From: Candidatus Huberarchaeum crystalense
GTDB taxonomy: Archaea > Huberarchaeota > Huberarchaeia > Huberarchaeales > Huberarchaeaceae
Length of the DNA: 38,014 nt
Reading direction: 5' to 3'
NCBI GenBank assembly: GCA_002790315.1
Contig: PFUW01000003.1
Location: 1-38,014 of the forward strand
A program made the translations under genes and the position numbers. The notes beneath the pieces were generated by a model. That model did no database searches. It was not told the origin of the DNA and was given only the letters and a program-made list of their open reading frames with translations. Below, piece by piece: positions 492 through 24,939 of the stretch; position 1 is the stretch's first letter; each line of letters begins with the position of its first letter.

Positions 492-2933
492 ATGATTAAT
501 AAAAAAGCGCGCGCACCAAAAGTCTCAAAAAATTCAGAGCCACAAAACGGAGTTGACATAAACAACGCAGTAAACAAAATATCAAACATATTCTCAAACA
601 AAAAACTTCTTTTAAACTTTATTTATTTAATTTCTCTTATTGCAATTTTTTATGTTGCGTTTGATTTACGCGACGGTGCAATGGATTCTAAGTATTTCAT
701 TGATCCTGATGCAATGTATTTTTTTATGCGTGGTGAAGCGTATGCTGAATGCGGACAATCTGTCTGCACTCTTGATGGATTAGATCCAATGCGTCAAGCA
801 GGCAATACTTCAAACCCATTACCAGAGGTTAAATTTCATTTTATGTCTATAACTCTTGTTGGAATCCACAAAATTCTTGAACCTATAACTGGAATTTCAC
901 TTCAAAACACATTTATAAACCACCTACCTTATTTAACAGTCCTTGTTTTAATTGTTCTTTTCTTTATTGGAAAGGCTCTTTTCAACACACCTGCAGGCAT
1001 AATAACAGCTGGAATTGGCGCAGTTGCAGTTCCATCTCTTTTTAGGTCAAGCGCAGGTGCTCCTGACCATGATTTGTTTGGGCTTTTTTTTATTGTAATG
1101 GCGATTTTCTATTTTATTAAGTATTTTAGAGAGGAACAAAACCAAGACAAGGCAACAATTTTTATAATTTTAGCTGGAATCTTTACATTATTTACTCCTT
1201 TATTTTGGCATGGTAGTCAGCCATATATAACAATTCCAATTACAGCATATTTTGTTATAAAAGCACTATTATATAAAATAAATACTCGTGATTTGCTAAA
1301 TGCTAGTATATTTACCTTACTTTCAGCAATAGGTATGGTGTTAAATATGATTCCTAGTACTTCTTTTATGTGGGTTGAGATTTTTAAAGCAGTTGCAAAG
1401 AATATATATATTGATCTTTTGCTTGGAGTTGTTGTACTTTATTTGGTGCTTGTTTTAATTGAAAAATTCAAACTATATGAGAAATATAAAGTTAATTCAA
1501 AGGTTTTGGGTATTGGAGTAACTTTTATTATTGGGTGTTTTGGTTTGTTTGTTCTTGGTGGATTTAATTTCTCTTTGTTTGGAGCAATTTTTGACAAAAT
1601 TATCTCACCTGTTAGGGGTGTTGGTGGAAGTGGTGCAGCAGTTGTAGGATATACTGTTGCAGAAAACCAAGCAGTCAGTTTTGGCAATTTGTGGGCAACA
1701 TTTAATCTTGGGTCTGATTGGATATCATTTTTTATGCCATTTGCGCTTGCTATCTATGGATTTTTAATCCTTTTACTAATAATAATTTACCGCGCAATAA
1801 AGACAAAGCGACTCAATTTAACTTATCAGGAAATATTTTTAATTATAATGTTTTTGTTTTCTGCCTATGCAGCTCTTGGCGGCTCGCGCATGTTTTTCGT
1901 TTTCTCGTGGTTTGTAGGAATATTTACAGCAATGTTTTTCTACATAATATATACAAACCTTTCAAAAATAATTGACAAGCAAGGCATTCATATAGATGAC
2001 AAAAAAATTGTGCGTTTAATTTTGCTCGTTTGTTTGATTGTCTTAAGTATATTTATTTTTTACCAAAATTATAATATAGCAAATGCAAGCAAAGTGACAA
2101 TGGCATATACAAAACAAGCAGAAGGCTATGATATAACAGCATATTCTTGGATTCGCGAAAACACAAATGCAACAGATGTAATTGGACATTGGTGGGATTA
2201 TGGATATTGGACAGAATTTTTAGGCAGACGACCCGTTCATGTTGATGGCGGCGGCTCAGGAGATAGGTATGAAGTAGCATACAGATTTATGACAACACCT
2301 GACGAACAAGAAGCATACCAATATTGCAAAGACCATAAAATTAAATATTTTATGGTGTTTCCATCAGATCTTGGAAAATTTGTTCAAATGGTAAGAATTG
2401 GTCAAAGAGAAGGTGGTTTTGGTGTTTTAGGCAACCCCAGAACACAAGTTGGCAACAATGTTATTTATAATGTTTATCAAGGAGGTATAACCAAACCAAC
2501 TCCTGGCTTTTTTGAAGACATATATGGAGTTTTGGCAATTGGAAAATCAACAAATAAAAGCAACCTAACAGGAAATATTTTAGAAGCAAAACTAAATCTT
2601 ATGGTAATTCAAAACCAACAAAAAGTCTCTGAAACAGGAAATCAAAATTTGAAATATTTATGTACTTCTCAGGGGCTTGTGGATTTAGAAAATGGTGTTG
2701 ATAATGGATGCTTTTATTATATAAATGAATCTGTCAATCTTTATAGCTATAGTAATGGAATTTTATCTGATTACTACCCTGTTGTTTATAGCTCACCTGC
2801 AAATATGGTTGGATTACAACTTATTTTGTTCAATGCAAAAGGAATGAAGTACTTTGAGCTTGTCCATTCAGGAGATATAATAAATGATGGGGGAAGCATT
2901 GGTCGCATAAAAATATTCAAAATTGTTGATTAA
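492..2933 (+). CDS. aglB: Oligosaccharyltransferase AglB (STT3 family)
   Basis: Multi-TM N-terminal half; DPD, DHD and TVAE (TIXE-like) motifs; WWDYG and a DxxK (DLGK) motif in the C-terminal domain. Confidence 0.95.
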   Translation: MINKKARAPKVSKNSEPQNGVDINNAVNKISNIFSNKKLLLNFIYLISLIAIFYVAFDLRDGAMDSKYFIDPDAMYFFMRGEAYAECGQSVCTLDGLDPMRQAGNTSNPLPEVKFHFMSITLVGIHKILEPITGISLQNTFINHLPYLTVLVLIVLFFIGKALFNTPAGIITAGIGAVAVPSLFRSSAGAPDHDLFGLFFIVMAIFYFIKYFREEQNQDKATIFIILAGIFTLFTPLFWHGSQPYITIPITAYFVIKALLYKINTRDLLNASIFTLLSAIGMVLNMIPSTSFMWVEIFKAVAKNIYIDLLLGVVVLYLVLVLIEKFKLYEKYKVNSKVLGIGVTFIIGCFGLFVLGGFNFSLFGAIFDKIISPVRGVGGSGAAVVGYTVAENQAVSFGNLWATFNLGSDWISFFMPFALAIYGFLILLLIIIYRAIKTKRLNLTYQEIFLIIMFLFSAYAALGGSRMFFVFSWFVGIFTAMFFYIIYTNLSKIIDKQGIHIDDKKIVRLILLVCLIVLSIFIFYQNYNIANASKVTMAYTKQAEGYDITAYSWIRENTNATDVIGHWWDYGYWTEFLGRRPVHVDGGGSGDRYEVAYRFMTTPDEQEAYQYCKDHKIKYFMVFPSDLGKFVQMVRIGQREGGFGVLGNPRTQVGNNVIYNVYQGGITKPTPGFFEDIYGVLAIGKSTNKSNLTGNILEAKLNLMVIQNQQKVSETGNQNLKYLCTSQGLVDLENGVDNGCFYYINESVNLYSYSNGILSDYYPVVYSSPANMVGLQLILFNAKGMKYFELVHSGDIINDGGSIGRIKIFKIVD

Positions 2934-2936
2934 ATA

Positions 2937-3010
2937 GTGTCAAAAGTTAATTAATATTTTATTTTCTGACAAGATTTATTAAAGAAATTGGTGTCAAAAG
3001 TTAATTAATA
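2937..3010. repeat. Exact 20-bp direct repeat GTGTCAAAAGTTAATTAATA (2937-2956, 2991-3010)
   Basis: Read directly; period 54 bp; intergenic. Confidence 0.85.
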
Positions 3011-3083
3011 AACTATAATTCTTCTAAAGCTTGGCGCGCAAAAGTTAGAGGTTTGCTATAATAAATTATTAAAATATATTAAG

Positions 3084-4391
3084 ATGTTTAACTTGTTTAA
3101 AAAGATTTTTTGGGGTGAAAAAAAAGAAACAAAAAAACAAAAACTAATTAGTATAAGTTTTGATAATGTCTTAAATTTTGTTGAAAAACAAATTGTAGAA
3201 AAGCAAACAAATGCAAAGAAAAAAGCAGAAGAACTAATAGATGTGGTTTATTATGGGGTTTTGGAATTTAAAAACAAAACACAAGAATTAAAAGAAGCAA
3301 AGCCAAAAATAGAAGTATTTATTCACAAAAACTTTGATTTGAAAATTAAAAATGAATATTGTGACAGAATTTTGGCTGCAATAAATAAAATAGAAAAACA
3401 AAAAATAGAAATAAATGAACCAATTGATTTTTTAAATAATTGTGAAAGTGTATTTAGAATTGCTGGGGGGTTGGGTCCTAAAAACAACTATATGATATCA
3501 TATTTTTTTAAAGAATATTTAAAAGAGTTTGTAGATGCAAGCACAAAAACCCAAGATGCGATGGCAAAACTCAGTAAATTTATAAAAGAGGAAGGAAAAA
3601 TTATTTATACTAATAATGATATAAGCAACACACTAAAACATATTAAAAAAATAGAAAATAATCTTTTTGAAGAACAAAAAATGCATATTGCTCTTCTAAA
3701 AGAAATAAAAGATTTAGAAAAAAAAGCAACAACCTTAAAAATAGATTTATCAAATATTGAGAACAACAAAGGGTTTTTTGAGAGCAAAAAATTAAAAGAT
3801 GAAATACAAAAACTATCTCGAGAAAAAACAAAAATTCACCAGCAGCTAAGCACTGTTTTTGATAAAGCTCATAAAATGATTAAAAAATATTGGCATCTTT
3901 ATAAAGATGCTGATAAAACTTTTGTAAAGAAGTTAGAAGATTCTTTGGATTCTCTGACAGATACTTTTTTGCATGAAAAAAACGATGGTAAATATCTCCT
4001 TAAAGACATATTATCAAAGGTTGATACAACAATAAAAAATAAAAGCTTTGACTATGATGAAAAAGAACAGAACCAGTGGGTTTTGTTTATGGCTTCTTTT
4101 AATATAGATCTTGAAACAGAACACAAAAGACAATATCTTGAAATTGTAGATAAAATAGAAAAAAAAGAAGCGCAACTTAAAATGAAAACAGAAGAATATT
4201 TAAATAAAAAACAAAGTATAAGTAAAGAAATAAGGTCTATCGCTGATGAATTATCTGGTTTGGAAAAACAAAAGAAAAATATTGGGGAAAATGTGCGCGC
4301 ACTTGAATTAAAGCTAAAACAGGATAAAGAGATTCTTAACAATAAAGTTAGTAAAGCTGTGGATAAAGATGTTAATATTTTGTACAAATAG
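3084..4391 (+). CDS. Hypothetical coiled-coil protein
   Basis: 435-aa K/E-rich helical ORF with no recognisable catalytic motif. Confidence 0.8.
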   Translation: MFNLFKKIFWGEKKETKKQKLISISFDNVLNFVEKQIVEKQTNAKKKAEELIDVVYYGVLEFKNKTQELKEAKPKIEVFIHKNFDLKIKNEYCDRILAAINKIEKQKIEINEPIDFLNNCESVFRIAGGLGPKNNYMISYFFKEYLKEFVDASTKTQDAMAKLSKFIKEEGKIIYTNNDISNTLKHIKKIENNLFEEQKMHIALLKEIKDLEKKATTLKIDLSNIENNKGFFESKKLKDEIQKLSREKTKIHQQLSTVFDKAHKMIKKYWHLYKDADKTFVKKLEDSLDSLTDTFLHEKNDGKYLLKDILSKVDTTIKNKSFDYDEKEQNQWVLFMASFNIDLETEHKRQYLEIVDKIEKKEAQLKMKTEEYLNKKQSISKEIRSIADELSGLEKQKKNIGENVRALELKLKQDKEILNNKVSKAVDKDVNILYK

Positions 4392-6137: not shown

Positions 6138-6214
6138 ATTTTCTTTACATATTGCATAAGGCACGCATTTAATTTTTTGCTTGCATTTTTAGAAAAAGAA
6201 ATGTTTGGTTTATA

Positions 6215-6297
6215 TGCAAGGAACCGGATTCGAACCGGCGAAAGCTTACGCTACAAGGTCCTTAACCTTGCTCCTTTGACCGCTCGGAAATCCTTGC
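6215..6297 (-). tRNA. tRNA-Leu, anticodon AAG
   Basis: Acceptor GCAAGGA/TCCTTGC with A73; anticodon arm CAAGG-TTAAGGA-CCTTG; long variable arm; T arm GCCGG-TTCGAAT-CCGGT; no encoded CCA. Confidence 0.92.
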
Positions 6298-6367
6298 TTT
6301 AAGTTAAGAGTTATATCTTAATTTTTTTAAATATGAAAAACTTTATGTGTGTTGCGCCGCGCATTTT

Positions 6368-6440
6368 GCCTTTGTAGCCTAATGGATATGGCGGCAGCCT
6401 TCTAAGCTGCAGGTTGCGGGTTCGAGTCCCGCCAAAGGCA
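6368..6440 (+). tRNA. tRNA-Arg, anticodon TCT
   Basis: Acceptor GCCTTTG/CAAAGGC; anticodon arm GCAGC-CTTCTAA-GCTGC; T loop TTCGAGT. Confidence 0.95.
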
Positions 6441-6726
6441 TATACTTATTTTTTAGCAACAGAATCTAACACAAACATTGATTTTCTAATCTTTTCAACA
6501 ATATATGCTACTATATATAAATATATTATAATTTTTCAAAGAATTTTCACAAAGTTGTAAAAAAATTGAAACTTTATTCTAAAATTTTAATTGTTCTAAA
6601 CTTTCGCAGCCTGAATTTTATTAGAACTATCTTTTCAGGTTGTTCTCAGGCAGATTTATAAAAATTGTTAAACATATATTTTAAAAATCTTATGTGTTAC
6701 GCAAGTTTTAGGATTTGCGCGCACAA

Positions 6727-6800
6727 GGGCCTGTAGCTCAGTTGGTCAGAGCGCACGACTGATAATCGTGAGGTCAAGAGTTCGAATCTCTTTAGGCCCA
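6727..6800 (+). tRNA. tRNA-Ile, anticodon GAT
   Basis: Acceptor GGGCCTG/TAGGCCC; anticodon arm CACGA-CTGATAA-TCGTG; T arm AAGAG-TTCGAAT-CTCTT. Confidence 0.95.
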
Positions 6801-6961
6801 TCGCGCAATTATATTGCGAATATCTTAACAATGTAGTGTTTAGCAATCCAGGAGATGTAGATTATTCTAAACAATAATTACATCCTTGCTCGATTGTTTC
6901 ACTCACTTCGCAGGGATACAAATTGTTCAAAGCAACAATTATATCCTTGTTCTCTTTGTTC

Positions 6962-7045
6962 GCAGGGATCGCACAGTGGAAGTGCGCCACACTGCTAATG
7001 TGGTGGGCTGTGAAGCCTCCGTGGGTTCGATTCCCTCTCCCTGCA
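6962..7045 (+). tRNA. tRNA-Ser, anticodon GCT
   Basis: Acceptor GCAGGGA/TCCCTGC; D stem GCAC/GTGC; anticodon arm CCACA-CTGCTAA-TGTGG; long variable arm; T loop TTCGATT. Confidence 0.9.
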
Positions 7046-7111
7046 TAAAAACAAACACAAACGCAACACACATCTAAATTTTACTCCATATATAAAAAAC
7101 CAAAGTATATT

Positions 7112-15140: not shown

Positions 15141-15212
15141 CCCTTCCTAGCTCAACGGTAGAGCGCTTGGCTGTAGACCGAGATGTTCCCGGTTCAAATC
15201 TGGGGGAAGGGA
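15141..15212 (+). tRNA. tRNA-Tyr, anticodon GTA (intronless)
   Basis: C1-G72 acceptor CCCTTCC/GGAAGGG with A73; anticodon arm CTTGG-CTGTAGA-CCGAG; short variable loop (archaeal/eukaryal type). Confidence 0.95.
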
Positions 15213-15355: not shown

Positions 15356-15829
15356 TTAATTTTCCACAAAACCAACAATGTTTTGTTGTTTAAGTGTGAG
15401 TGCTTGTTCTATTGGAATTGTAGTAATATCTTCTTTTTTAAAAGGCCCGTATGGCTTTAAGTCGCTTCCGAGAAACGCATCACAATCTTTGTTGAATTTA
15501 ACAAGCGCGTGTTTGCCTTTTTTCAAGGAAAAAATTTTCTCGATATTGTTATTAAAAATATCTTTTAAGGTCCTGTAGAGTTGAAATTCTTCATCAAGCA
15601 GATTTGTGAGGTCTTCTTTTTCAAACAAAATTGCGCGCTGGGCAATCTTTATCATCCGAGATTGCATAAAATCTTTAACTAAAAGTTGCGCTTGTTTTTT
15701 TATAGTTTCATCATCTGTAAAATTAAAAAACTCTTCAAGTTCTTTAAAAAAATTTGAGGGTAAATCTGTTAAATCATTATTTGTTTTTTCCTTTCTACGC
15801 GCCTCACTAATATATTTAAAAGTTATCAT
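15356..15829 (-). CDS. GINS complex subunit (Gins15/Gins51 type)
   Basis: A domain (EARRKEK...LTDLPSNFF...SRMIKI...NLLDEE) followed by B domain (FLGSDLKPYGPFKKEDITTIP); immediately downstream of the primase gene. Confidence 0.88.
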   Translation of the reverse strand: MITFKYISEARRKEKTNNDLTDLPSNFFKELEEFFNFTDDETIKKQAQLLVKDFMQSRMIKIAQRAILFEKEDLTNLLDEEFQLYRTLKDIFNNNIEKIFSLKKGKHALVKFNKDCDAFLGSDLKPYGPFKKEDITTIPIEQALTLKQQNIVGFVEN

Positions 15830-15880: not shown

Positions 15881-17986
15881 TTATTTTATTTTTTCTTCCT
15901 TTATTTTTTCTTCCTTTATTTTTTCTTCCTTTATTTTTTCTTCCTTTATTTTTTCTTCCTTTATTTTTTCTTCCTTTATTNNNNNNTCTTTTATTTTGTT
16001 TTTAACATAGGTAATCGGGTTTTTTGTTTTTTTTGTGAGGGCATTTTCCCCACAGACCCCCATTTTTTTATAAATCTCTGAATTAAGTGGAGGAATTAAC
16101 TGTGCTTTTTTTCGCATAAAATTAGAGTGAATTTTTTGAGCAAGCACCTCTTCGGAAACCATAGAGGTATTGCGAAGATTCCATTCTTTTAAAATAAGTT
16201 CAACTTGCTCTTGAGAATAGAATGAGCTAACATTTTCTCCTAACCCCCTAAAAAAATTAATGAGAATTTCAGCAGCGCGCTCTGGTTCAACAAATACCCC
16301 TTTAAAAATATTTTGTATTGTCTGCGGAAAATCTTTTTCTTCAATATATGAAGAACTTAAAAAACTTGACACTCGTGGCTTTGGTTTCTTGCTATTATTT
16401 TTATATTTAAGTTTATTAAGAACATATGTAATTGGGTTTTTTACTTTTTTTGTTAATTCATCTTCTTCATAAACACCAATCTCTTTATAAATTTCTGATG
16501 AAAAAGAGGGGGGTAAAATGGGTTTTTTGTGCTTAAAATTATAAAATATTTGTTGATGAACATATTCTTTTGGGAGCGGCGAAGTGTTGCAGAGATTCCA
16601 CTTTTCCACAACTATTTCAATCATATTTTGAGGATAAGACAAACTTCTGAAAAAATTAATTAAAATAAATAGCGCGCGCTTCCTTCCATCTTTTAGTCCT
16701 TTTAAAATATTAAGAATAGTGGGAGGAAAATATAAGGGGTTTATCAAACCATTAAATAAAAAAGATTGTGTTGAAACCAAACCTTTACCTTGCTTTACAA
16801 CTTCAATATATGCTTTTTTTCTTTTCTCTGCATCTATTTTTAATAAATCTATAGTAAAGTCCTTATTGTATTTGGTTTCTTCTTGTTTAATTTTATTTAA
16901 TATTTGTTTTTTTTCCTCTTTATTTTTTTTATCAAACCAAAGAAAAGCATTTGACACCATTTTACTTGCTTTTCCAACAGAATATTTATCTAAAAACCCC
17001 AATAAACCGTCGCCACTATATGATAAAACAGCATCAATAGTTGCTTGTTCTTTTTTAAAAGAATGAATTTTTGATGGAAGAATAGGCAAACTAACAAAGC
17101 CTGATTTTGGATGCAAACTATAAGGGCTACGAATAAAGTGGCGCGAAGAAAAAACCTGAAAATCCAGCTTTAAATTAACAAACAGGTTGGTTTGTTGTTG
17201 TTTTTGGTAGGGGGTTTGGGTGGTTAGGGGGGTTGGTTTCGACTGGAGATTTGTGGTTGTGGGTTTTAGCAAGAACTCTTTTGTTGGTTTTAAAGAGGAA
17301 CTATCAATATATTTTTGCTTAAGTTGTTCAGATATATTTTCTAACGAGAAATTATCAATATATTTTTGCTTAAGTTGTTCAGATATATTTTCTAACGAGA
17401 AATTATCAATATATTTTTGCTTAAGTTGTCGGGATACTTTTTCTTCAAGATAGCACAAAATAAAAAGAGGTAAAAAAGGAAAAGCTTGTGCGCGCTTTTC
17501 CAACACACCCCCAAAATTACAAATATAGTCTGGAAACTCTTCTCCCCTTAAACCAATATGAAAACCTTTATTACCTGAAAATTTTATTGATATGTCTTTT
17601 TTAGGTATTCCTTCATCAACAAAAAAAAGCACAATTTCACTTGCAATAATTTTTGCATAAGAAAAACCAATATCAACATCAATATCTATTATAAAATCCC
17701 AATTCTTACGATTATTATCCATCTCTTCTTTTGTTTTGTTTTTTCCTAAATTCATTACATCACACCAACGCTCAATAGATGTGTGAAATTCATTTGATCC
17801 TCGCGCAATATAAGAATATATATCACCTTCTTCATTTAAAAAATTAGGGCGCGCACCCATTTTTCTATTTCCTTTAGAATCTACAATAGCAGAAACAAAT
17901 TCTCTATCCGTAGAAAAAGTAAATATTGCGCGCATAATTTGTGGATTTGAGTAATATTCTAAAAGCTTTCGTCTTGAAATTTGCAT
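15881..17986 (-). CDS. priS: Fused DNA primase PriS-PriL (DPANN type) with duplicated C-terminal domain
   Basis: WDFIIDID (DxD), KFSGNKGFH and RHFIRSPYSLHPKSG motifs; PriL-CTD-like KGLKDGRKRALFILINF...KNPITY present twice. Start at 17986 or 18028; extreme C-terminus lies next to an N-gap. Confidence 0.92.
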   Translation of the reverse strand: MQISRRKLLEYYSNPQIMRAIFTFSTDREFVSAIVDSKGNRKMGARPNFLNEEGDIYSYIARGSNEFHTSIERWCDVMNLGKNKTKEEMDNNRKNWDFIIDIDVDIGFSYAKIIASEIVLFFVDEGIPKKDISIKFSGNKGFHIGLRGEEFPDYICNFGGVLEKRAQAFPFLPLFILCYLEEKVSRQLKQKYIDNFSLENISEQLKQKYIDNFSLENISEQLKQKYIDSSSLKPTKEFLLKPTTTNLQSKPTPLTTQTPYQKQQQTNLFVNLKLDFQVFSSRHFIRSPYSLHPKSGFVSLPILPSKIHSFKKEQATIDAVLSYSGDGLLGFLDKYSVGKASKMVSNAFLWFDKKNKEEKKQILNKIKQEETKYNKDFTIDLLKIDAEKRKKAYIEVVKQGKGLVSTQSFLFNGLINPLYFPPTILNILKGLKDGRKRALFILINFFRSLSYPQNMIEIVVEKWNLCNTSPLPKEYVHQQIFYNFKHKKPILPPSFSSEIYKEIGVYEEDELTKKVKNPITYVLNKLKYKNNSKKPKPRVSSFLSSSYIEEKDFPQTIQNIFKGVFVEPERAAEILINFFRGLGENVSSFYSQEQVELILKEWNLRNTSMVSEEVLAQKIHSNFMRKKAQLIPPLNSEIYKKMGVCGENALTKKTKNPITYVKNKIKXXXIKEEKIKEEKIKEEKIKEEKIKEEKIKEEKIK
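15884..15980. repeat. 15-bp tandem repeat encoding (KEEKI)n at the primase C-terminus
   Basis: TTTTTTCTTCCTTTA repeated about 6 times up to the N-gap; copy number unreliable. Confidence 0.75.
17192..17248. repeat. Left arm of a 57-bp inverted repeat (ORB-like core GTTTCGACTGGAG), inside the primase gene
   Basis: Reverse complement matches 19960-20016 at 55/57 positions. Confidence 0.9.
17302..17429. repeat. 51-bp in-frame tandem repeat (QLKQKYIDNFSLENISE), about 2.5 copies, in the primase gene
   Basis: Units start at 17302, 17353 and 17404. Confidence 0.9.
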
Positions 17987-18029
17987 ATTTTTTTTAATAT
18001 AGATAATGTTTTCTTTTGAAATTTGCATG

Positions 18030-18382
18030 TTTTTTAATATGTTTAATATAATATTATATTTATTAATAATTAATAATAATTTATAATATTTAATTTAGTA
18101 ATTTTTAATAATAATTTATAATATTTAATAATAATAACTTTTAATAATAATCTATAATAAATTATAACAATAATAACTAATAATTTTTAATAACAATCTT
18201 TAATAATCTTTAATAATTATTTAATAATCTTTAATAATAATAAAATATAACAATAATTATTTATAATAATATATTAATAATTTTTAATAATAATTTATAA
18301 TACTAACAATTTACGACTATTTATAATAATCTAACAATCTATAATAATAATTTAATAATTTATAACAATCTTTAATAACATT
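18030..18382. other. Extremely AT-rich low-complexity tract; candidate DNA-unwinding element of oriC
   Basis: About 350 bp of TAATAA/TAACAA-type units with almost no G on the + strand, between the divergent primase and cdc6 genes. Confidence 0.7.
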
Positions 18383-19597
18383 ATGCCTGAAAAAAACATC
18401 CAAGAGATACTTCAATCTATTGTCAACCAAAAAAGCAAAATATTTAAAAATAAAAAAATATTATCTTTAGACTATATTCCAGAACAAATCCTTCATCGCC
18501 AAAAACAAATTGAAGAAATAACAAAAATACTTAGCCCTATTTTTAGAGAAGAACCAACATCAAATATTTTTATCTATGGAAAACCAGGAACAGGTAAAAC
18601 AACAACAATTAATTATATAATAAAAGAAATAAAATATTTTTTAGATAAACAAGAGAATAAAAACCTTCAACAAAAAATAAAAATAATATATCTTAATTGT
18701 AAAGAAGGACATGTTTCAGACACAGAATATAGATTAATATCAACAACATGCTCTTATTTTGGAAAGCAAATTCCTGCAGGGCTATCTATAAAAAATATAT
18801 ATGATGAGTTTTTTAGGGTAGTTGATTATCAAAAAGCAAATATAATTTTAGTTCTTGATGAAATTGATAATATTGTTAGTAAAAATAGTGATGATTTTTT
18901 ATATAATCTTGCTCGCAAAAGATTTAAAAATATAAATTTAACTCTTATAGGAATTTCAAATAATATTAATTTTATAGAACTTTTAGATCCGCGTATAAAA
19001 AGCGCGCTTAACCAAGAAGAATTTATTTTTCCTCCATATAATGCAGAAGAACTTTTAGATATTTTAAAGCAAAGGTCTGATAATGCTTTTGAAAAGAGTG
19101 TTGTTTCTGAAGGTGTTTTAGAAAAAGTTGCAGGTATTATTGCTCAGCAAAATGGAGATATGCGAAGGGCAATAAATTTATTACGTGTTGTTGGGGAATT
19201 AGCTGAAAGAAATAATCTTAATAAATTATCTTTAGAGTTAGTTGAAGAAGCTGAAAAAAAATTAGAAGAAAATATAATGTTAGAAATGATATATAGCCAG
19301 CCCCTACACTCTAAAATTATATTATATTCTGTTTTGCAAAATACAATAAAAACAAAAACAACTACAACAGGAAAAGTATATGAACAATACGAACAACTTT
19401 GCAAAACAACAAAACAAAAACCTTTAACTTCTCGCCGCGTCACAGACTTTGTTGTTGAGTTAGACATGTTGGGGCTTATTTCAACAAATATTGCTTCTTA
19501 TGGTAGATATGGAAGAACGCGTGAATTATCTATAAATTATCCAAAACAAATAAGAGACCAAATTACTACTTATCTTAGAGGTGTTATATTTAGATAA
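18383..19597 (+). CDS. cdc6: Orc1/Cdc6 replication initiator
   Basis: YIPEQILHR, Walker A GKPGTGKT, Walker B VLDEID, LDPRIKS, FPPYNAEEL, GDMRRAI; winged-helix ELDMLGLI...GRYGRTR. Confidence 0.96.
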   Translation: MPEKNIQEILQSIVNQKSKIFKNKKILSLDYIPEQILHRQKQIEEITKILSPIFREEPTSNIFIYGKPGTGKTTTINYIIKEIKYFLDKQENKNLQQKIKIIYLNCKEGHVSDTEYRLISTTCSYFGKQIPAGLSIKNIYDEFFRVVDYQKANIILVLDEIDNIVSKNSDDFLYNLARKRFKNINLTLIGISNNINFIELLDPRIKSALNQEEFIFPPYNAEELLDILKQRSDNAFEKSVVSEGVLEKVAGIIAQQNGDMRRAINLLRVVGELAERNNLNKLSLELVEEAEKKLEENIMLEMIYSQPLHSKIILYSVLQNTIKTKTTTTGKVYEQYEQLCKTTKQKPLTSRRVTDFVVELDMLGLISTNIASYGRYGRTRELSINYPKQIRDQITTYLRGVIFR

Positions 19598-19856
19598 TAA
19601 TAATTAAATTAATTATATTTGTTTTATATATATTTATATAAATATATAAATAATATTTAAATATATATATTTATTTTAAAGGCGTTATATTTAAATAATA
19701 ATTATAATTATTTTAAAGATGTTTTATTTAAATATTTATTATTAATATTTATTATTTATTGTTTAATTATATTTAATTGTTTTAGTTTAATTTTAAATAA
19801 ATACAAAAAATATAAAATTCAAATAAATACAAAACCATTTGTTGTTTAAAAAAAAT
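19598..19856. other. Second very AT-rich tract, downstream of cdc6; candidate unwinding element
   Basis: About 260 bp of nearly pure A/T between cdc6 and DP1. Confidence 0.55.
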
Positions 19857-21632
19857 ATGCCTAACTTAAATTTTATACCTAATAATATTTCTGATGAACA
19901 AAAAACAAAAGCAAAACAAGGTGAACTTATTTTTATACCTTCTAACCCCCCCTACCACACTCCAGTCGAAACCAACCCCCCTAACCACTCAAACCCCCCA
20001 CCAAAAACAACAACAATAACAAAAACCACCCTTGCTACACACCAAACAACAGAGTCAAAACAACAACATCAACAACAACCTGCGCCCGCGCCACAAACTT
20101 GCGCGCCAACAACAAATATATTTTCTAACATTTTTAAAATAGACACAACCCAAGATATTAAAGTTATACAAGAATTTTCAAAAACAGGTTATGCGCGAAC
20201 AGCTTCAACATTTACATCTTATTTTAAAAGCCGCTACCAAAAACTCAGTGCTATTTTTAAAAGAGAGCATGTATTTGATAAACCTATTTGCTCAATTTAT
20301 AATTTAGTGCAAAACCAACCTTTAACTATTATTGGAATAGTTTATGATATTAGAAAACTACCTAATAGCTATCGCATCACTGTTGAAGATCTTACAGGAA
20401 AAATTAGTATTGTAGTTCCTGCAAACAACATAAATGCTTTTGAAAAATCAAAAAAAATATTTGCTGATATGGTGCTTGCATTTACAGGTGTTTTAGGAGG
20501 AAGAAATGTATTTTTTTGCGATGATATAATATTACCTGACATTCCTTTACAAAACAGCTACAAACAACGAACCGAAAAACCAGATGTGTCTTTTGTTTTT
20601 ATCTCTGATTTGCATATTGGAAGCAAAAATTTTTTAAAAAAATCATTTCAGCATTTTGTTGACTGGGTGTGCGGGTATTATGGTGGAACTTTAGGTGTTG
20701 ATGCCTCAAAAATTACAGTAATTTTTGTGGGCGGTGATTTAGTTTCAGGAATAAATATCTATAAAGAACAGCAAAACGACTTACATATTCAAGATTTAAA
20801 AAAGCAATACGATGAAGTTGCGCGCTATTTTTCTAAAATTCCAAAAACCATCAAAATAATTATAATTCCTGGAAACCACGACGCTCAGCGATTACCTACC
20901 CCACAACCAGCAATTATGAAGTCTTTTGCTACCTCACTTTATGATTTAAAAAATGTTATTATGACATCAAGCCCTTGTTTGGTTTCTGTTTTTGGTGTGA
21001 ATGTTCTGCTTGATCATGGGGTAAGCACATCTGTACTTGCTGAAATAAATTCTGATTTTAAGAGCATGCTTGTTTCTGAGCCTCAAAAAATAGGAAAATA
21101 TTTGCTACAAGCGCGCCACCTATACCCTATTTATGGAGAGGCGAGAGGGGTTTTGTCTCCCGAATTAGAAGATTTTCTTGTCATAGACAAAATCCCAGAT
21201 ATTTTTGCATTCGGGCATGTTCATTCTTGTGGATATATGAATTATAGAGGAGTACATATTATTAATCCTGGTTGTTTTGAGGGGATGACTGATTATGAAG
21301 AGAGAATAGGATTAACTCCAAATCCGGGTTGGGCTTATGTTTATGATTTAGCAACAGATAGTGTTAAAGCACTTTGTTTTTTAGATGATGATGAAAAAGA
21401 TTTGGCAAATGGTATAAATCTCAGAGCAGCAAAAGAAAAAAAATTAATAGAAGAAACAACAAATAAGGGTAATATAAACAATATTGTTGCTGACCTTAAA
21501 ATAATAGGTGGCGCGCACACAAAAGATCTATTAAAAATTGCAACAAAGTGCGNNNNNNNNNNNNNAACAAAGAGTATAATTACAACTACCAAAAAAACAA
21601 AAAACAACGAGGAAAAAGCAAATGGCAAATAA
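19857..21632 (+). CDS. polD1: DNA polymerase D small (proofreading) subunit DP1
   Basis: OB fold (IIGIVYDIR...VEDLTG); phosphoesterase motifs SDLHIGS, GDLV, PGNHD, HG and GHVH; N-gap near the 3' end. Confidence 0.93.
   Translation: MPNLNFIPNNISDEQKTKAKQGELIFIPSNPPYHTPVETNPPNHSNPPPKTTTITKTTLATHQTTESKQQHQQQPAPAPQTCAPTTNIFSNIFKIDTTQDIKVIQEFSKTGYARTASTFTSYFKSRYQKLSAIFKREHVFDKPICSIYNLVQNQPLTIIGIVYDIRKLPNSYRITVEDLTGKISIVVPANNINAFEKSKKIFADMVLAFTGVLGGRNVFFCDDIILPDIPLQNSYKQRTEKPDVSFVFISDLHIGSKNFLKKSFQHFVDWVCGYYGGTLGVDASKITVIFVGGDLVSGINIYKEQQNDLHIQDLKKQYDEVARYFSKIPKTIKIIIIPGNHDAQRLPTPQPAIMKSFATSLYDLKNVIMTSSPCLVSVFGVNVLLDHGVSTSVLAEINSDFKSMLVSEPQKIGKYLLQARHLYPIYGEARGVLSPELEDFLVIDKIPDIFAFGHVHSCGYMNYRGVHIINPGCFEGMTDYEERIGLTPNPGWAYVYDLATDSVKALCFLDDDEKDLANGINLRAAKEKKLIEETTNKGNINNIVADLKIIGGAHTKDLLKIATKCXXXXXTKSIITTTKKTKNNEEKANGK
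19960..20016. repeat. Right arm of the 57-bp inverted repeat (CTCCAGTCGAAAC...), inside DP1
   Basis: Matches the reverse complement of 17192-17248 with 2 mismatches. Confidence 0.9.
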
Positions 21633-24600
21633 TATAGAGACTTATCGCAACACACTAAACCAAGAAGTAGAAAAGCAAGCAGCAATTGCAAATAAAGCGC
21701 GCGCAAAAGGGTATGATTTAGAGAAAACAATAGGAATTAAAATATCGCCAGACAAAGCAGGAAGAATTGAAGGTTTGTTTGCCACAGAATTCAAAGAAGC
21801 AGAGGGCTCTGGAATTGCAGAAAGAATTCGCGAGCTTGAAGCCCAACTTGGAGCTAACAATATAAAAATTGCATTTAATCTTGCAGAAGAAATAGCAGCA
21901 AATAAGTTTTTTAATATTCCGAGCATTGAAAAAAAAATTGAAGCAGGTGTTCGTTTAGGTTTAACTTATTTAACTTCAGGAATAGTAGCAGCGCCATTAG
22001 AAGGCATAGTTTGTATTAAACTTAAAAAAAATGATGATGGAAGTGATTATGCTGCGGTTTATTTTGCAGGCCCAATTCGCGCAGCAGGAGGAACAGCACA
22101 AGCAGTTTCTGTTCTCTTAACTGATTTTATTAGACAAAAATATAACATCGAAAAGTACAAAATAACTAGAGATGAAATCGAGCGAGGAGTTCTTGAAATT
22201 AATTCATATAGTACGCGCCAATATAACCCTGTTGATGAAGAAATTCGTTTTATGCTTAGCCATTTGCCTGTTGAGGTTTCTGGAGAAGGAACAGAAGATT
22301 ATGAAGTTCCAAATTATAAAAATTTGCCTCGCATTGAGACACCAAATATTAGGGGGGGGTTTTGTCTTGTTATTACTGAGGGTTTGATGCTAAAAGCAAA
22401 AAAACTCATGAAAATAGCTGAAAAAATGTCGCTGTCTTCTTGGGGGTGGATTGATGATTATGTTAAATTAAAAGAAAAAATACACACAAACACAGATGGA
22501 AAAAAAACAAGTGCAAAGGTCTTGCCTAATTATAAATATTTAGAAGAATTGGCTGCAGGTAGGCCTATATTTGGGTATCCGTCTGTTGTTGGTGGTTTTA
22601 GGTTGAGGTATGGAAGAGCGCGCACAAGCGGATTTGCTGCTTATGCTATTCATCCAGCAAGCGCTGTGTTGTCTGATGGGTTTATTGCAGTTGGGACTCA
22701 ATTAAAAGTAGAAAGGCCAGGAAAATCAACAGTAATAAGCTTTTGCGACGAGATTGAAGGCCCCATTGTTAAATTGAAGAGTGGAGATGTCTTACAACTA
22801 ACTTCAAGAGAACAAGCAGAAAAAATGAAAAAAGAAGTAGAAAGCATTTTGTTTTGGGGTGATTTGCTAATATCTTATGGTGATTTTTTACATAATAACC
22901 ATATATTAATTCCAAGCGGATATGTTGAAGAGTGGTGGATACAAGAGTTAGAAAAAGCAGTTATCGGGTCAAAAGATAAAGAAAAAGATAAAGATAAAGA
23001 AAATAATCAAAAAATAAATGACATAAAAAATGAAGAAAATAATCAAAANNNNNNNNAATATAAAATTCCTCTCTATCCAAAATATACTTTTTGGTGGAAA
23101 GAAATATCAAAACGAGAACTTTTAACACTATATAATAAAATTTGGCAGCAAGAATCTGATGGGTTTGTATTTGAGATTGACTTTAAAACAATACTTGAAA
23201 AATTAAGATGCACGCACAACATTAAAAATAATTTAGTGTGGTTAGAAGAGAATTTAATTATATTACGGCAACTTTTACCAAAAGACGCAAAGATAGAGCA
23301 AAGAATTAGTGAGAGTGAAAATATTTCAAATATAGATTTACTATCAAAAATTTCAGGTGTGGTTTTGCGAGAAAAAGCGCCTTGCTTTATTGGTTGTAGA
23401 ATGGGCCGCCCAGAAAAAGCGCAGATGAGGGCAATGCGAGGAAGTCCGTGTTCTCTTTTTCCTGTTGGACTTGATGGGGGTAGGTTGCGCGAAGTTAATA
23501 ATATGAATAAAATGAATATCAAATTTCGCGATTTTTTTTGCAGCAAATGCAATAAATCTGTTTTGTGGGGTGTTTGTCCTTTTTGCAAATCACAAACAAC
23601 CGAAAAACAAATAATTTCTGCAGAACATGATATCAAAACACTGTTAGATAATGCGCATTTAAACTTGAAAAATAAATTTAAGCAAGTCGAAATATTGAAA
23701 GGAGTCAGAGGACTTAGCAGCGAACGTATGATTCCTGAACGAATAGAAAAAGGAATATTGAGATCTTTCCACAACCTAACAATTTTCAAAGATTGTACAA
23801 TTAGATATGATGCTATAGATGTTCCTATTACTCATTTCAAACCAAAAGAAATAGGTACTTCTATTGAAAAATTGCGCAAATTAGGATATTTTGAAGATTA
23901 TCTTGGAAATCCACTAAAACAAGAAGATCAAATTTGCGAACTGTTTGCTCAGGATGTTATTATGCCTGAAAACGCTTCAGATGTTTTTGTTAGTATATCT
24001 CGTTTTGTTGATGATGAGTTAGAGTTTTTTTATAATTTGTCGCGCTATTATTCTATAAAGACAGCAAATGATTTGATTGGACATCTTGTTATTGGTTTGG
24101 CTCCCCACACCTCAGCAGGGATTATTGGACGAATTATTGGCTTTACTCCAGCTTTTGCACAATTTGCTCATCCATATTGGCATGCTGCAAAGAGAAGAAA
24201 CTGCGACGGCGACGAGGACGGGTTTATGTTGCTTATGGACGCTTTATTAAATTTTTCACAACAATATTTGCCTAACAAAAGAGGAACACGAATTATGGAT
24301 GCACCTATTGTTTTAACAACTATTTTAAAAGTTGAAGAAGTTGATGATGAGGTATATCATTTAGATGTTGCTGATCATTATCCTCTTGAATTTTATGAAG
24401 CAGCGTTTTGTTATGACGCGCCCTCTGCGGTTTCAATAGATCTTGTTGAAAATAAAATGAAAGCAGGAACACCTTATTCTGGTTTAAAATTTACACACAA
24501 CACAACTTGTTTTTATGATGGTCCACACACATCTTCATATAAGACGCTTACTACAATGCTTGACAAAGTTATGGCTGAGTTAGAAATTGCAAAAAAAGCA

Positions 24601-24939
24601 GTTTCAGTAGAGGAAACAGATGTTGCAAATCTAGTGATTCAATGTCATTTTATAAAAGATATTCGCGGAAATTTGAGATCATTTACAACACAAACAGTAA
24701 GATGCACTGGTTGTAATGAGATTTTTCGCCGCCCACCCTTAGCAGGTATTTGCCCAAAATGCAAAAAAAATTTGACCTTAACAATACACGAAGGAGGAAT
24801 AAGGAAATATTTAGGGCCTAGTTTAAAGATTGTAGAAAAATACCGTCTTGATGAATATACTCGCCAATGTCTTGACCTTATTCTTTGCCAAGTTGATGCT
24901 GTTTTTGGCAAAAAGACAAACCAAAACACACTATTCTAA
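21622..24939 (+). CDS. polD2: DNA polymerase D large subunit DP2 (no intein)
   Basis: AAPLEGI, YFAGPIRAAGGTAQA, GGFRLRYGRAR, GLAPHTSAG, catalytic KRRNCDGDED and C-terminal CxxC pairs. Confidence 0.97.
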   Translation: MANNIETYRNTLNQEVEKQAAIANKARAKGYDLEKTIGIKISPDKAGRIEGLFATEFKEAEGSGIAERIRELEAQLGANNIKIAFNLAEEIAANKFFNIPSIEKKIEAGVRLGLTYLTSGIVAAPLEGIVCIKLKKNDDGSDYAAVYFAGPIRAAGGTAQAVSVLLTDFIRQKYNIEKYKITRDEIERGVLEINSYSTRQYNPVDEEIRFMLSHLPVEVSGEGTEDYEVPNYKNLPRIETPNIRGGFCLVITEGLMLKAKKLMKIAEKMSLSSWGWIDDYVKLKEKIHTNTDGKKTSAKVLPNYKYLEELAAGRPIFGYPSVVGGFRLRYGRARTSGFAAYAIHPASAVLSDGFIAVGTQLKVERPGKSTVISFCDEIEGPIVKLKSGDVLQLTSREQAEKMKKEVESILFWGDLLISYGDFLHNNHILIPSGYVEEWWIQELEKAVIGSKDKEKDKDKENNQKINDIKNEENNQXXXXYKIPLYPKYTFWWKEISKRELLTLYNKIWQQESDGFVFEIDFKTILEKLRCTHNIKNNLVWLEENLIILRQLLPKDAKIEQRISESENISNIDLLSKISGVVLREKAPCFIGCRMGRPEKAQMRAMRGSPCSLFPVGLDGGRLREVNNMNKMNIKFRDFFCSKCNKSVLWGVCPFCKSQTTEKQIISAEHDIKTLLDNAHLNLKNKFKQVEILKGVRGLSSERMIPERIEKGILRSFHNLTIFKDCTIRYDAIDVPITHFKPKEIGTSIEKLRKLGYFEDYLGNPLKQEDQICELFAQDVIMPENASDVFVSISRFVDDELEFFYNLSRYYSIKTANDLIGHLVIGLAPHTSAGIIGRIIGFTPAFAQFAHPYWHAAKRRNCDGDEDGFMLLMDALLNFSQQYLPNKRGTRIMDAPIVLTTILKVEEVDDEVYHLDVADHYPLEFYEAAFCYDAPSAVSIDLVENKMKAGTPYSGLKFTHNTTCFYDGPHTSSYKTLTTMLDKVMAELEIAKKAVSVEETDVANLVIQCHFIKDIRGNLRSFTTQTVRCTGCNEIFRRPPLAGICPKCKKNLTLTIHEGGIRKYLGPSLKIVEKYRLDEYTRQCLDLILCQVDAVFGKKTNQNTLF

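Follow-up and report, generated by a model that had tools for sequence, protein, structure and literature searches.

Candidate origin recognition boxes within the primase and DP1 coding sequences flanking cdc6 in Candidatus Huberarchaeum crystalense

Can the initiator boxes of an archaeal replication origin be carried within protein-coding DNA? This question is raised by scaffold C39 of genome G000 (Candidatus Huberarchaeum crystalense, contig PFUW01000003.1), which was analysed as one whole stretch of 38,014 bp (hereafter, the window). The genome comprises 453 kb in 42 contigs, with 31.5% G+C and a completeness of approximately 78%, and has no relatives in its order or phylum among the species genomes compared. 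On either side of its orc1/cdc6 gene, the sole copy found, two inverted 57-nt arms lie inside the genes for a fused primase and for the small subunit (DP1) of DNA polymerase D (PolD). On the basis of sequence comparison, we give even chances to the proposal that these arms are Orc1/Cdc6 boxes of the origin recognition box (ORB) type, located in primase and DP1 coding DNA and bracketing cdc6 together with its AT-rich spacers. In the literature on replication origins of DPANN archaea, no origin was found described for tiny-genome archaea of this kind. The arms and the genes concerned are:

17192..17248, minus strand: left arm, on the sense strand of the primase gene, read as LQSKPTPLTTQTPYQKQQQ
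19960..20016, plus strand: right arm, on the sense strand of the DP1 gene, read as TPVETNPPNHSNPPPKTTT
15881..18028, minus strand: fused primase gene, encoding a PriS catalytic domain with two helical modules C-terminal to it; it holds a 6-N scaffold gap
18383..19597, plus strand: orc1/cdc6 gene, with Cdc6 lid and winged-helix domains, of the Orc1-1 type
19857..21632, plus strand: PolD small subunit (DP1) gene, with PF04042 and a metallophosphatase domain

The original prediction had described an inverted repeat identical at 55 of 57 positions, and this was reproduced by a repeat finder (57 nt, 96% complementary, arms 2711 nt apart) as well as by direct count (55/57). Because the primase and DP1 genes diverge, the 57-mer stands on the sense strand of both. 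In a blastn-short search of all 42 contigs (453 kb), the only copies of the 57-mer were the two arms, both flanking the sole cdc6, and the next-best matches were A/C low-complexity stretches of at most 31 nt; the search for dispersed copies that had been suggested at the outset therefore returned nothing but the repeat itself. Weaker similarity, with indels, continues beyond the 57 nt to about 19942-20033 and 17175-17269 in a gapped alignment, and the sequence picture is that of an older shared tract whose centre has been recently homogenised or constrained. The genome has 59 other non-tandem repeat pairs of at least 35 nt. Twelve pairs were inspected from this set, and none of the other 11 joins unrelated genes in different frames, being instead tRNA-like, same-frame paralogues, or AT-rich DNA without an open frame.

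The repeat is not a misassembly, since three of three independent N-free metagenome contigs (L021-L023) carry both arms exactly, with the same two differences and collinear with the window; an inverted isoform or a chimeric join was seen in none of the three. Among public data, 23 DNA runs contain, as contigs, 96-97% of the sampled words of positions 16800-20400, a sample in which the arm words are not necessarily included; two of these runs are possible sources, and no RNA run was listed. On the antisense strand of each arm (17205-17235, plus; 19973-20003, minus), several G-runs fall within about 30 nt, comprising GG doublets and two longer runs (five to six G each), and the template strand of both genes may in principle be able to form a two-tetrad G-quadruplex.

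With regard to coding, the primase and DP1 readings of the 57-mer (LQSKPTPLTTQTPYQKQQQ and TPVETNPPNHSNPPPKTTT, respectively) are one base out of register. One of the three sense frames of the arm contains a stop codon, and the two stop-free frames are exactly those in use. The arms are nearly pure C+A on the sense strand and have 51% G+C, which places them within the top 1.5% of 57-nt windows. The primase arm includes codons that each account for 4-17% of their synonymous family (CTC, CAG, TCG, four ACC, two CCC, CTA, and TAC). When codon rarity was expressed as mean log synonymous frequency against a background of 13,493 19-codon windows from 164 long open reading frames (ORFs), the primase arm proved rarer than 99.94% of windows (lowest 0.06%), and when the same peptide was recoded 20,000 times by drawing codons at their genomic frequencies, no draw was as rare. 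The DP1 arm falls within the lowest 3.4% of windows, with 616 of 20,000 redraws as rare.

The proteins themselves give little reason for this sequence, as judged from AlphaFold2 models in which both arm peptides lie in predicted-disordered, low-complexity segments. The right arm corresponds to DP1 residues 35-53, within a segment (residues 28-94) with a predicted local distance difference test score (pLDDT) <50, and the left-arm peptide falls within segment 208-269 of primase P0124, again at pLDDT <50. The models were built on small alignments (13 sequences for DP1 and 15 for primase), and the flanking domains are confident. The claims that the arms are translated in different frames within low-complexity linkers, and that conservation acts at the DNA level, are thus in keeping with the frames, the disorder, and the rare codons, and the 57-mer probably serves as a signal in DNA, not as a motif in the proteins.

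Evidence from outside the genome comes from one sister lineage only, found in a search for relatives that combined a word-based search with exhaustive HMMER over 1.84 billion representative proteins. The sister DP1 (P0005/P0137) is 61% identical by BLASTP, or 67% over the matched stretch in HMMER, and the sister primase (P0125) is 48% identical, while the next-best relatives reach 42% for DP1 and 35% for primase. Shorter fragments of the DP1 N-terminus were not found among relatives. Searches of genome contigs with P0005 and P0125 returned no sister locus, and a search of viral contigs with P0005 returned none either; the box pattern had 0 matches in viral contigs, and a metagenome scan led back to the population of the window and to no other. 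P0137 and P0125 are each encoded on a 44,528-bp contig, probably the same one.

As the original prediction had proposed, the linkers were aligned with those of relatives. The sister linkers around the boxes are unalignable and different in length, and both frame-specific peptides are nevertheless kept. In primase, sister NLHSKSTPLT matches NLQSKPTPLT of this genome at 8/10 positions, a score reached by none of 100,000 shuffles of the sister insert; in DP1, sister FPVEINPPQ matches TPVETNPPN at 6/9, which 1,069 of 100,000 shuffles reach. The proline-to-serine change in primase (CCA to TCN) and the threonine-to-isoleucine change in DP1 (ACC to ATH) would reflect the same C-to-T substitution at the same nucleotide of the repeat, as derived by hand from the genetic code and protein sequences only. 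This nucleotide would be the last base of the core (GAAAC to GAAAT), and both forms occur in boxes of other archaea. The retention of both peptides and the apparently identical C-to-T change suggest that the DNA itself is under constraint or evolves in concert. The part conserved with the sister comprises the first ~27 nt, that is, the core and the C-run. The remaining 30 nt are common to the arms of this genome only and coincide with an extra stretch of 15 residues, just after the box, in the G000 primase relative to the sister; this stretch has the look of DP1 sequence brought in by recent gene conversion.

The resemblance to an ORB resides in the first nucleotides of each arm:

17236..17248, minus strand: left-arm core CTCCAGTCGAAAC, reading away from cdc6 and followed by caa and six C
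19960..19972, plus strand: right-arm core CTCCAGTCGAAAC, reading away from cdc6 and followed by caa and six C

For comparison, an ORB consensus was taken from 19 cdc6 loci of other archaea. Cores with at most one mismatch from TCCAGTGGAAAC occur beside cdc6 in six of the 19 (L013, L014, L015, L016, L018, and L020), and the variant TCCAGTCGAAAT with a G-run is located upstream of cdc6 in two further loci, L008 and L017, both from small genomes. The arm core TCCAGTCGAAAC differs at one of 12 positions from the core of the six loci and at one of 12 from TCCAGTCGAAAT. By its sequence, it resembles the 12-13-nt ORB core of the TTCCAGTGGAAA(C/T) type, in which 'TTCC' and 'GAA' are conserved (PMC1904270). 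Exact matches to TCCAGTSGAAAY number two in the 453-kb genome, both of them the arms, whereas under a first-order Markov model 0.12 would be expected in the genome and 0.001 at distances of up to 1.2 kb from cdc6. The two arms count as one event because they represent one duplication, and the true chance of a core match is somewhat larger than computed because the pattern was chosen after the fact. The boxes stand 1135 bp upstream and 363 bp downstream of the sole cdc6 found. The ORB-like character attributed to the core was thus supported both by its likeness to cores beside cdc6 in other archaea and by its improbability near cdc6.

Two of the comparison loci deserve a separate description. 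In L008 (genome G020), positions 2898-3021, in the spacer upstream of cdc6, contain TCCAGTCGAAAT plus a G-run, which makes an inverted pair, about 110 bp apart, with a second ORB-like box, TCCACTTGAAAC plus a G-run. In L017 (genome G001), the C-variant core TCCAGTCGAAAT with a G-run is present at 3185, in the spacer upstream of cdc6. The boxes upstream of cdc6 in these two loci are likely the origins of the respective genomes.

Between the two boxes, the intergenic DNA on both sides of cdc6 is extremely AT-rich:

17987..18382, no strand: spacer between primase and cdc6, 396 bp, 7% G+C, a degenerate array of TAA/TAATAATAATTTA type; candidate unwinding element
19598..19856, no strand: spacer between cdc6 and DP1, 259 bp, 7% G+C, largely degenerate TAA-type; second candidate unwinding element

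A degenerate TAA/TAATAATAATTTA-type array of 260-330 bp fills most of the upstream spacer (18043-18369), which might hold lineage-specific AT-rich initiator sites. The locus presents an inverted box pair with two 7% G+C spacers between, one box per side, 2.7 kb apart, and no box in the spacers. The original prediction had the arms enclosing the PriS-coding half of the primase gene, cdc6, and AT-rich tracts; cdc6 and the two spacers are indeed enclosed, but the left arm falls within the PriS catalytic domain, which it interrupts, and is no marker of a PriS/PriL boundary.

Several observations weigh against reading the arms as initiator boxes. The base before TCC in the arm core is C, so that 'TTCC' reads 'CTCC'. 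In the canonical position 3′ of the core, where a full ORB has its G-string, the arms hold caa and six C; the inward G-rich runs that had been noted do exist, but on the opposite strand and the opposite side. There is a single box per side of cdc6, and a single 13-bp mini-ORB in Pyrococcus was, in the available text of PMC1904270, bound weakly and insufficient in vivo. A 13-mer scan of the whole window, spacers included, with up to three mismatches found the arms only and no further copy, a scan that has no significance of its own because 3.6 chance matches are expected. The dp1 box lies on the sense strand here and on the antisense strand in the Thermococcales-type loci L013-L015. The arm spacing of 2.7 kb is far above that typical of an ORB-DNA unwinding element-ORB arrangement, and the GC and AT skew along the 38-kb contig follows gene strand, with no clear turning point at 18-20 kb, cumulative GC skew included. 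A canonical origin could lie in the missing part of this 78%-complete genome. On the comparative side, the DP1 peptide match is modest when taken alone (p ~0.01), and the cross-lineage comparison covers two lineages, of which the sister is represented by protein only. The overall interpretation offered at the start thus retains the core match, the DNA-level repeat, the sister peptides, and the Thermococcales dp1 precedent, and is weakened by the C-run in the place of the G-run, the one box per side, the boxless spacers, and the skew.

A mechanism consistent with boxes of the ORB type can nevertheless be sketched, for which we infer Cdc6 binding, origin activity, and gene conversion at the arms. 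The winged-helix domain of Cdc6 would read the core TCCAGTCGAAAC on each arm, and two oppositely oriented Cdc6 complexes, 2.7 kb apart, would mark or loop the cdc6 region, in a two-sided arrangement like that of Pyrococcus, in which cdc6 is located between the oriC ORB cluster and the dp1 cluster. One of the ultra-AT-rich spacers may then melt for loading of MCM. DNA-level selection, together with gene conversion between the arms, would keep the boxes alike, the last conversion in this lineage spanning 57 nt, and the proteins would tolerate the boxes because these sit in disordered, frame-tolerant linkers. A bolder version, which we put forward tentatively and consider somewhat unlikely, is that of a chromosomal origin whose only initiator boxes are translated, one in primase and its inverted twin in the PolD gene, in two frames and kept in step across lineages by DNA selection and conversion. 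The peptide motifs would then be by-products, and licensing would be interlocked with two outward-facing replisome operons.

What else could account for such a repeat? The main rival explanation, though an unlikely one, is that the arms have no DNA-level function: C/A-rich linker DNA would have been copied between neighbouring genes and occasionally re-homogenised by conversion, surviving because two of its frames are open and it falls in disordered linkers, and the resemblance to ORBs would be coincidental. Both arms do lie in low-complexity, predicted-disordered segments, the frames used are exactly the two stop-free sense frames, and the canonical G-run is missing; moreover, the flanks show decayed, indel-bearing similarity, the 15 extra residues of the G000 primase just after the box are as expected from a DP1 conversion tract, and this genome has 59 other non-tandem repeat pairs of at least 35 nt. 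On the other hand, a neutral 27-nt tract should not stay recognisable in both genes when the proteins are 48-61% identical and the linkers unalignable, and rare G+C-rich codons persist in a genome of 31.5% G+C. An exact ORB-core match beside cdc6 would arise by chance with a probability of ~0.001, and a link between unrelated genes in different frames was seen in none of the 11 other repeat pairs inspected. An origin in two halves is also not the only use to which such boxes could be put, and it is conceivable, if improbable, that Cdc6 or another DNA-binding protein acts at them as a regulator, the boxes being operators or roadblocks in the divergent GINS-primase and DP1-DP2 units, such that box occupancy would tie the expression of replisome genes to the initiator. 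This would suit the position of the boxes, 0.1-0.8 kb into the leading genes of two replication operons that diverge, and the role of the dp1 cluster was left open by the Pyrococcus authors in the available text of PMC1904270. The ultra-AT-rich spacers beside cdc6 fit an origin, yet sequence does not separate the regulatory role from the origin role.

An element acting in RNA is less probable still. Under this explanation, primase and PolD would be co-regulated through a 57-nt C/A-rich site common to both mRNAs and bound by an RNA-binding protein or a small RNA. Such an element must lie on the sense strand of each gene, as the 57-mer does, but the divergent gene order gives the same arrangement for a symmetric DNA site. 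Rfam gave no match at E <= 1 over 16900-20300, which includes both arms, and the rest of the genome yielded no G-rich partner complementary to the site, the arms being the only copies on either strand. The last and least probable group of explanations comprises an assembly artefact, a mobile cdc6 cassette with terminal inverted repeats, and an invertible segment. They are suggested by inverted repeats bracketing an initiator gene and by the short N gaps of the scaffold; however, the arms are exact in three of three independent, N-free, collinear contigs, none of which is inverted. Across the left arm the PriS match is unbroken, and DP1 aligns continuously with its sister to either side of the right arm. 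Between the arms there is cdc6 alone and no recombinase, the genome has no further copies of the repeat, and an exchange between the arms would join primase and DP1 out of frame. A terminal inverted repeat, an invertible segment, and a misassembly were all rejected, as the host genes run through the arms and the three contigs are collinear.

The identities assigned to the three host and initiator genes were confirmed by their domains (PF01896 in primase; the Cdc6 lid and winged-helix domains; PF04042 with a metallophosphatase domain in DP1). The closest solved structures for Cdc6 are 2qby_A (2.7e-85) and 2v1u_A (2.8e-73), which places it in the Orc1-1 type, known from crystals on ORB DNA. The primase ORF encodes 715 aa, and PF01896 (primase small subunit) covers residues 129-316, a match that spans the left arm. 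The DP1 ORF opens at 19839, and the Met at 19857 is the one used by other assemblies. The genes beyond these are:

15356..15829, minus strand: GINS51 gene, on the same strand as the primase gene and downstream of it
21622..24939, plus strand: PolD large subunit (DP2) gene

The locus is a replication island, with GINS51 and primase transcribed leftward and cdc6, DP1, and DP2 rightward. A NAC-domain gene is also located near the replication genes. Of four tRNA genes, three occupy 6368-7045, in a 947-bp gap without ORFs (6165-7111), and the other is at 15141-15212.

Several further features of the primase and DP1 genes were noted. A 42-nt direct repeat at 17952-18035 duplicates the start of the primase gene and yields two MQIS... 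starts 14 codons apart; the second, near 17986, is likely the true start and is preferred because the sister protein aligns with it. The zinc-knuckle insert that is usual in PriS is replaced in this primase by the low-complexity segment holding the box. In the same catalytic-domain insert, a 51-nt tandem repeat at 17288-17440 encodes a 17-aa peptide unit of the form QLKQKYIDNFSLENISE, present in three copies in the window and two in P0124, the protein of other assemblies; therefore, the copy number varies within the population or between assemblies. The C-terminal half of the primase (15881-17000) consists of two tandem copies of a helical module (FPP..ILKGL..GRKRA...NPI.YV; PF08708 on the sister's record), and its C-terminus (15885-15980) contains a tandem 15-nt unit read as (KIKEE)n that abuts the scaffold N gap. 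The C-terminus of DP1 (21553-21565, at an N gap) has four 17-aa tandem units visible only in the gap-free P0004, and the sister DP1 ends in its own, different four-unit repeat.

If the boxes do bind Cdc6, the ORBs embedded in Pyrococcus dp1 would not be a curiosity of Thermococcales but one example of an old or recurrent layout that brackets the initiator gene with boxes and carries these into replication genes. Such a case would also be a clean natural example of a single DNA signal that constrains two proteins, each through its own reading frame, and a 57-bp probe with one initiator would offer a simple handle on origin recognition in an uncultivated lineage. Caution is also advisable in annotation, since a short 'motif' conserved in a disordered linker close to cdc6 may be a DNA site that happens to be translated.

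How does the locus compare with known systems? Canonical ORB and mini-ORB origins, such as Sulfolobus oriC1 and those of Aeropyrum, Methanothermobacter, and haloarchaea, as far as the available texts describe them (PMC4010727, PMC1904270), share with it a 12-13-nt dyad-type core, a cdc6-adjacent inverted pair, AT-rich DNA between boxes, and an Orc1-1-type initiator. The locus differs in having a C-run for the G-run and in having its boxes in coding DNA, 2.7 kb apart with the whole of cdc6 inside. In Bacillus subtilis, as cited in the available text of PMC1904270, DnaA-box clusters lie on both sides of dnaA and both contribute to origin function, so that an initiator gene is likewise bracketed by initiator sites, although that initiator is bacterial and unrelated and its boxes are non-coding. 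In Haloarcula hispanica oriC1, according to the text available for PMC4010727, a G-rich inverted repeat beside each ORB was described as a replication enhancer. The likeness consists in G/C-run-rich inverted sequences attached to the ORBs of an oriC1-type origin; that repeat is non-coding, halophile-specific, and mutation-tested, whereas the present one is known from sequence alone.

In Pyrococcus, cdc6 is located between two ORB clusters, one in oriC and one inside dp1, a layout conserved in Thermococcales (Matsunaga et al. 2007, PMC1904270). According to the available text of that report, Cdc6 binds both clusters in vivo and in vitro, as determined by chromatin immunoprecipitation and gel shift, and the dp1 box ORB3, which has no G-run, is bound at about 240 nM compared with 110-150 nM for ORB1/ORB2; the authors left the role of the dp1 cluster open. 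In our own comparison, the loci of one family (L013-L015) have boxes in the 5′ part of dp1. In L013 these are translated as ISTG repeats in an acidic, low-complexity N-terminal linker, with C-runs and not G-runs after some of them. The right arm is located in the same 5′ linker part of DP1 as the L013 boxes. The cdc6-dp1 adjacency occurs in 15 of the 19 other loci, and primase adjoins cdc6 in none of them. Thus, cdc6 flanked by boxes on both sides, one set in the translated 5′ linker part of dp1, the gene order cdc6-dp1-dp2, and a dp1 box without a G-run are common to Thermococcales and the present locus. However, single boxes stand here in place of clusters, the partner box belongs to the primase gene instead of a non-coding oriC, the spacers are free of boxes, a single 57-nt repeat translated in two frames makes up both boxes, and Cdc6 binding, which was demonstrated there, is postulated here. 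What is new in this locus is the sense-strand orientation, the single extended box per side, and the partner inside the primase gene, as well as the lack of non-coding boxes and the reading of one word in two frames.

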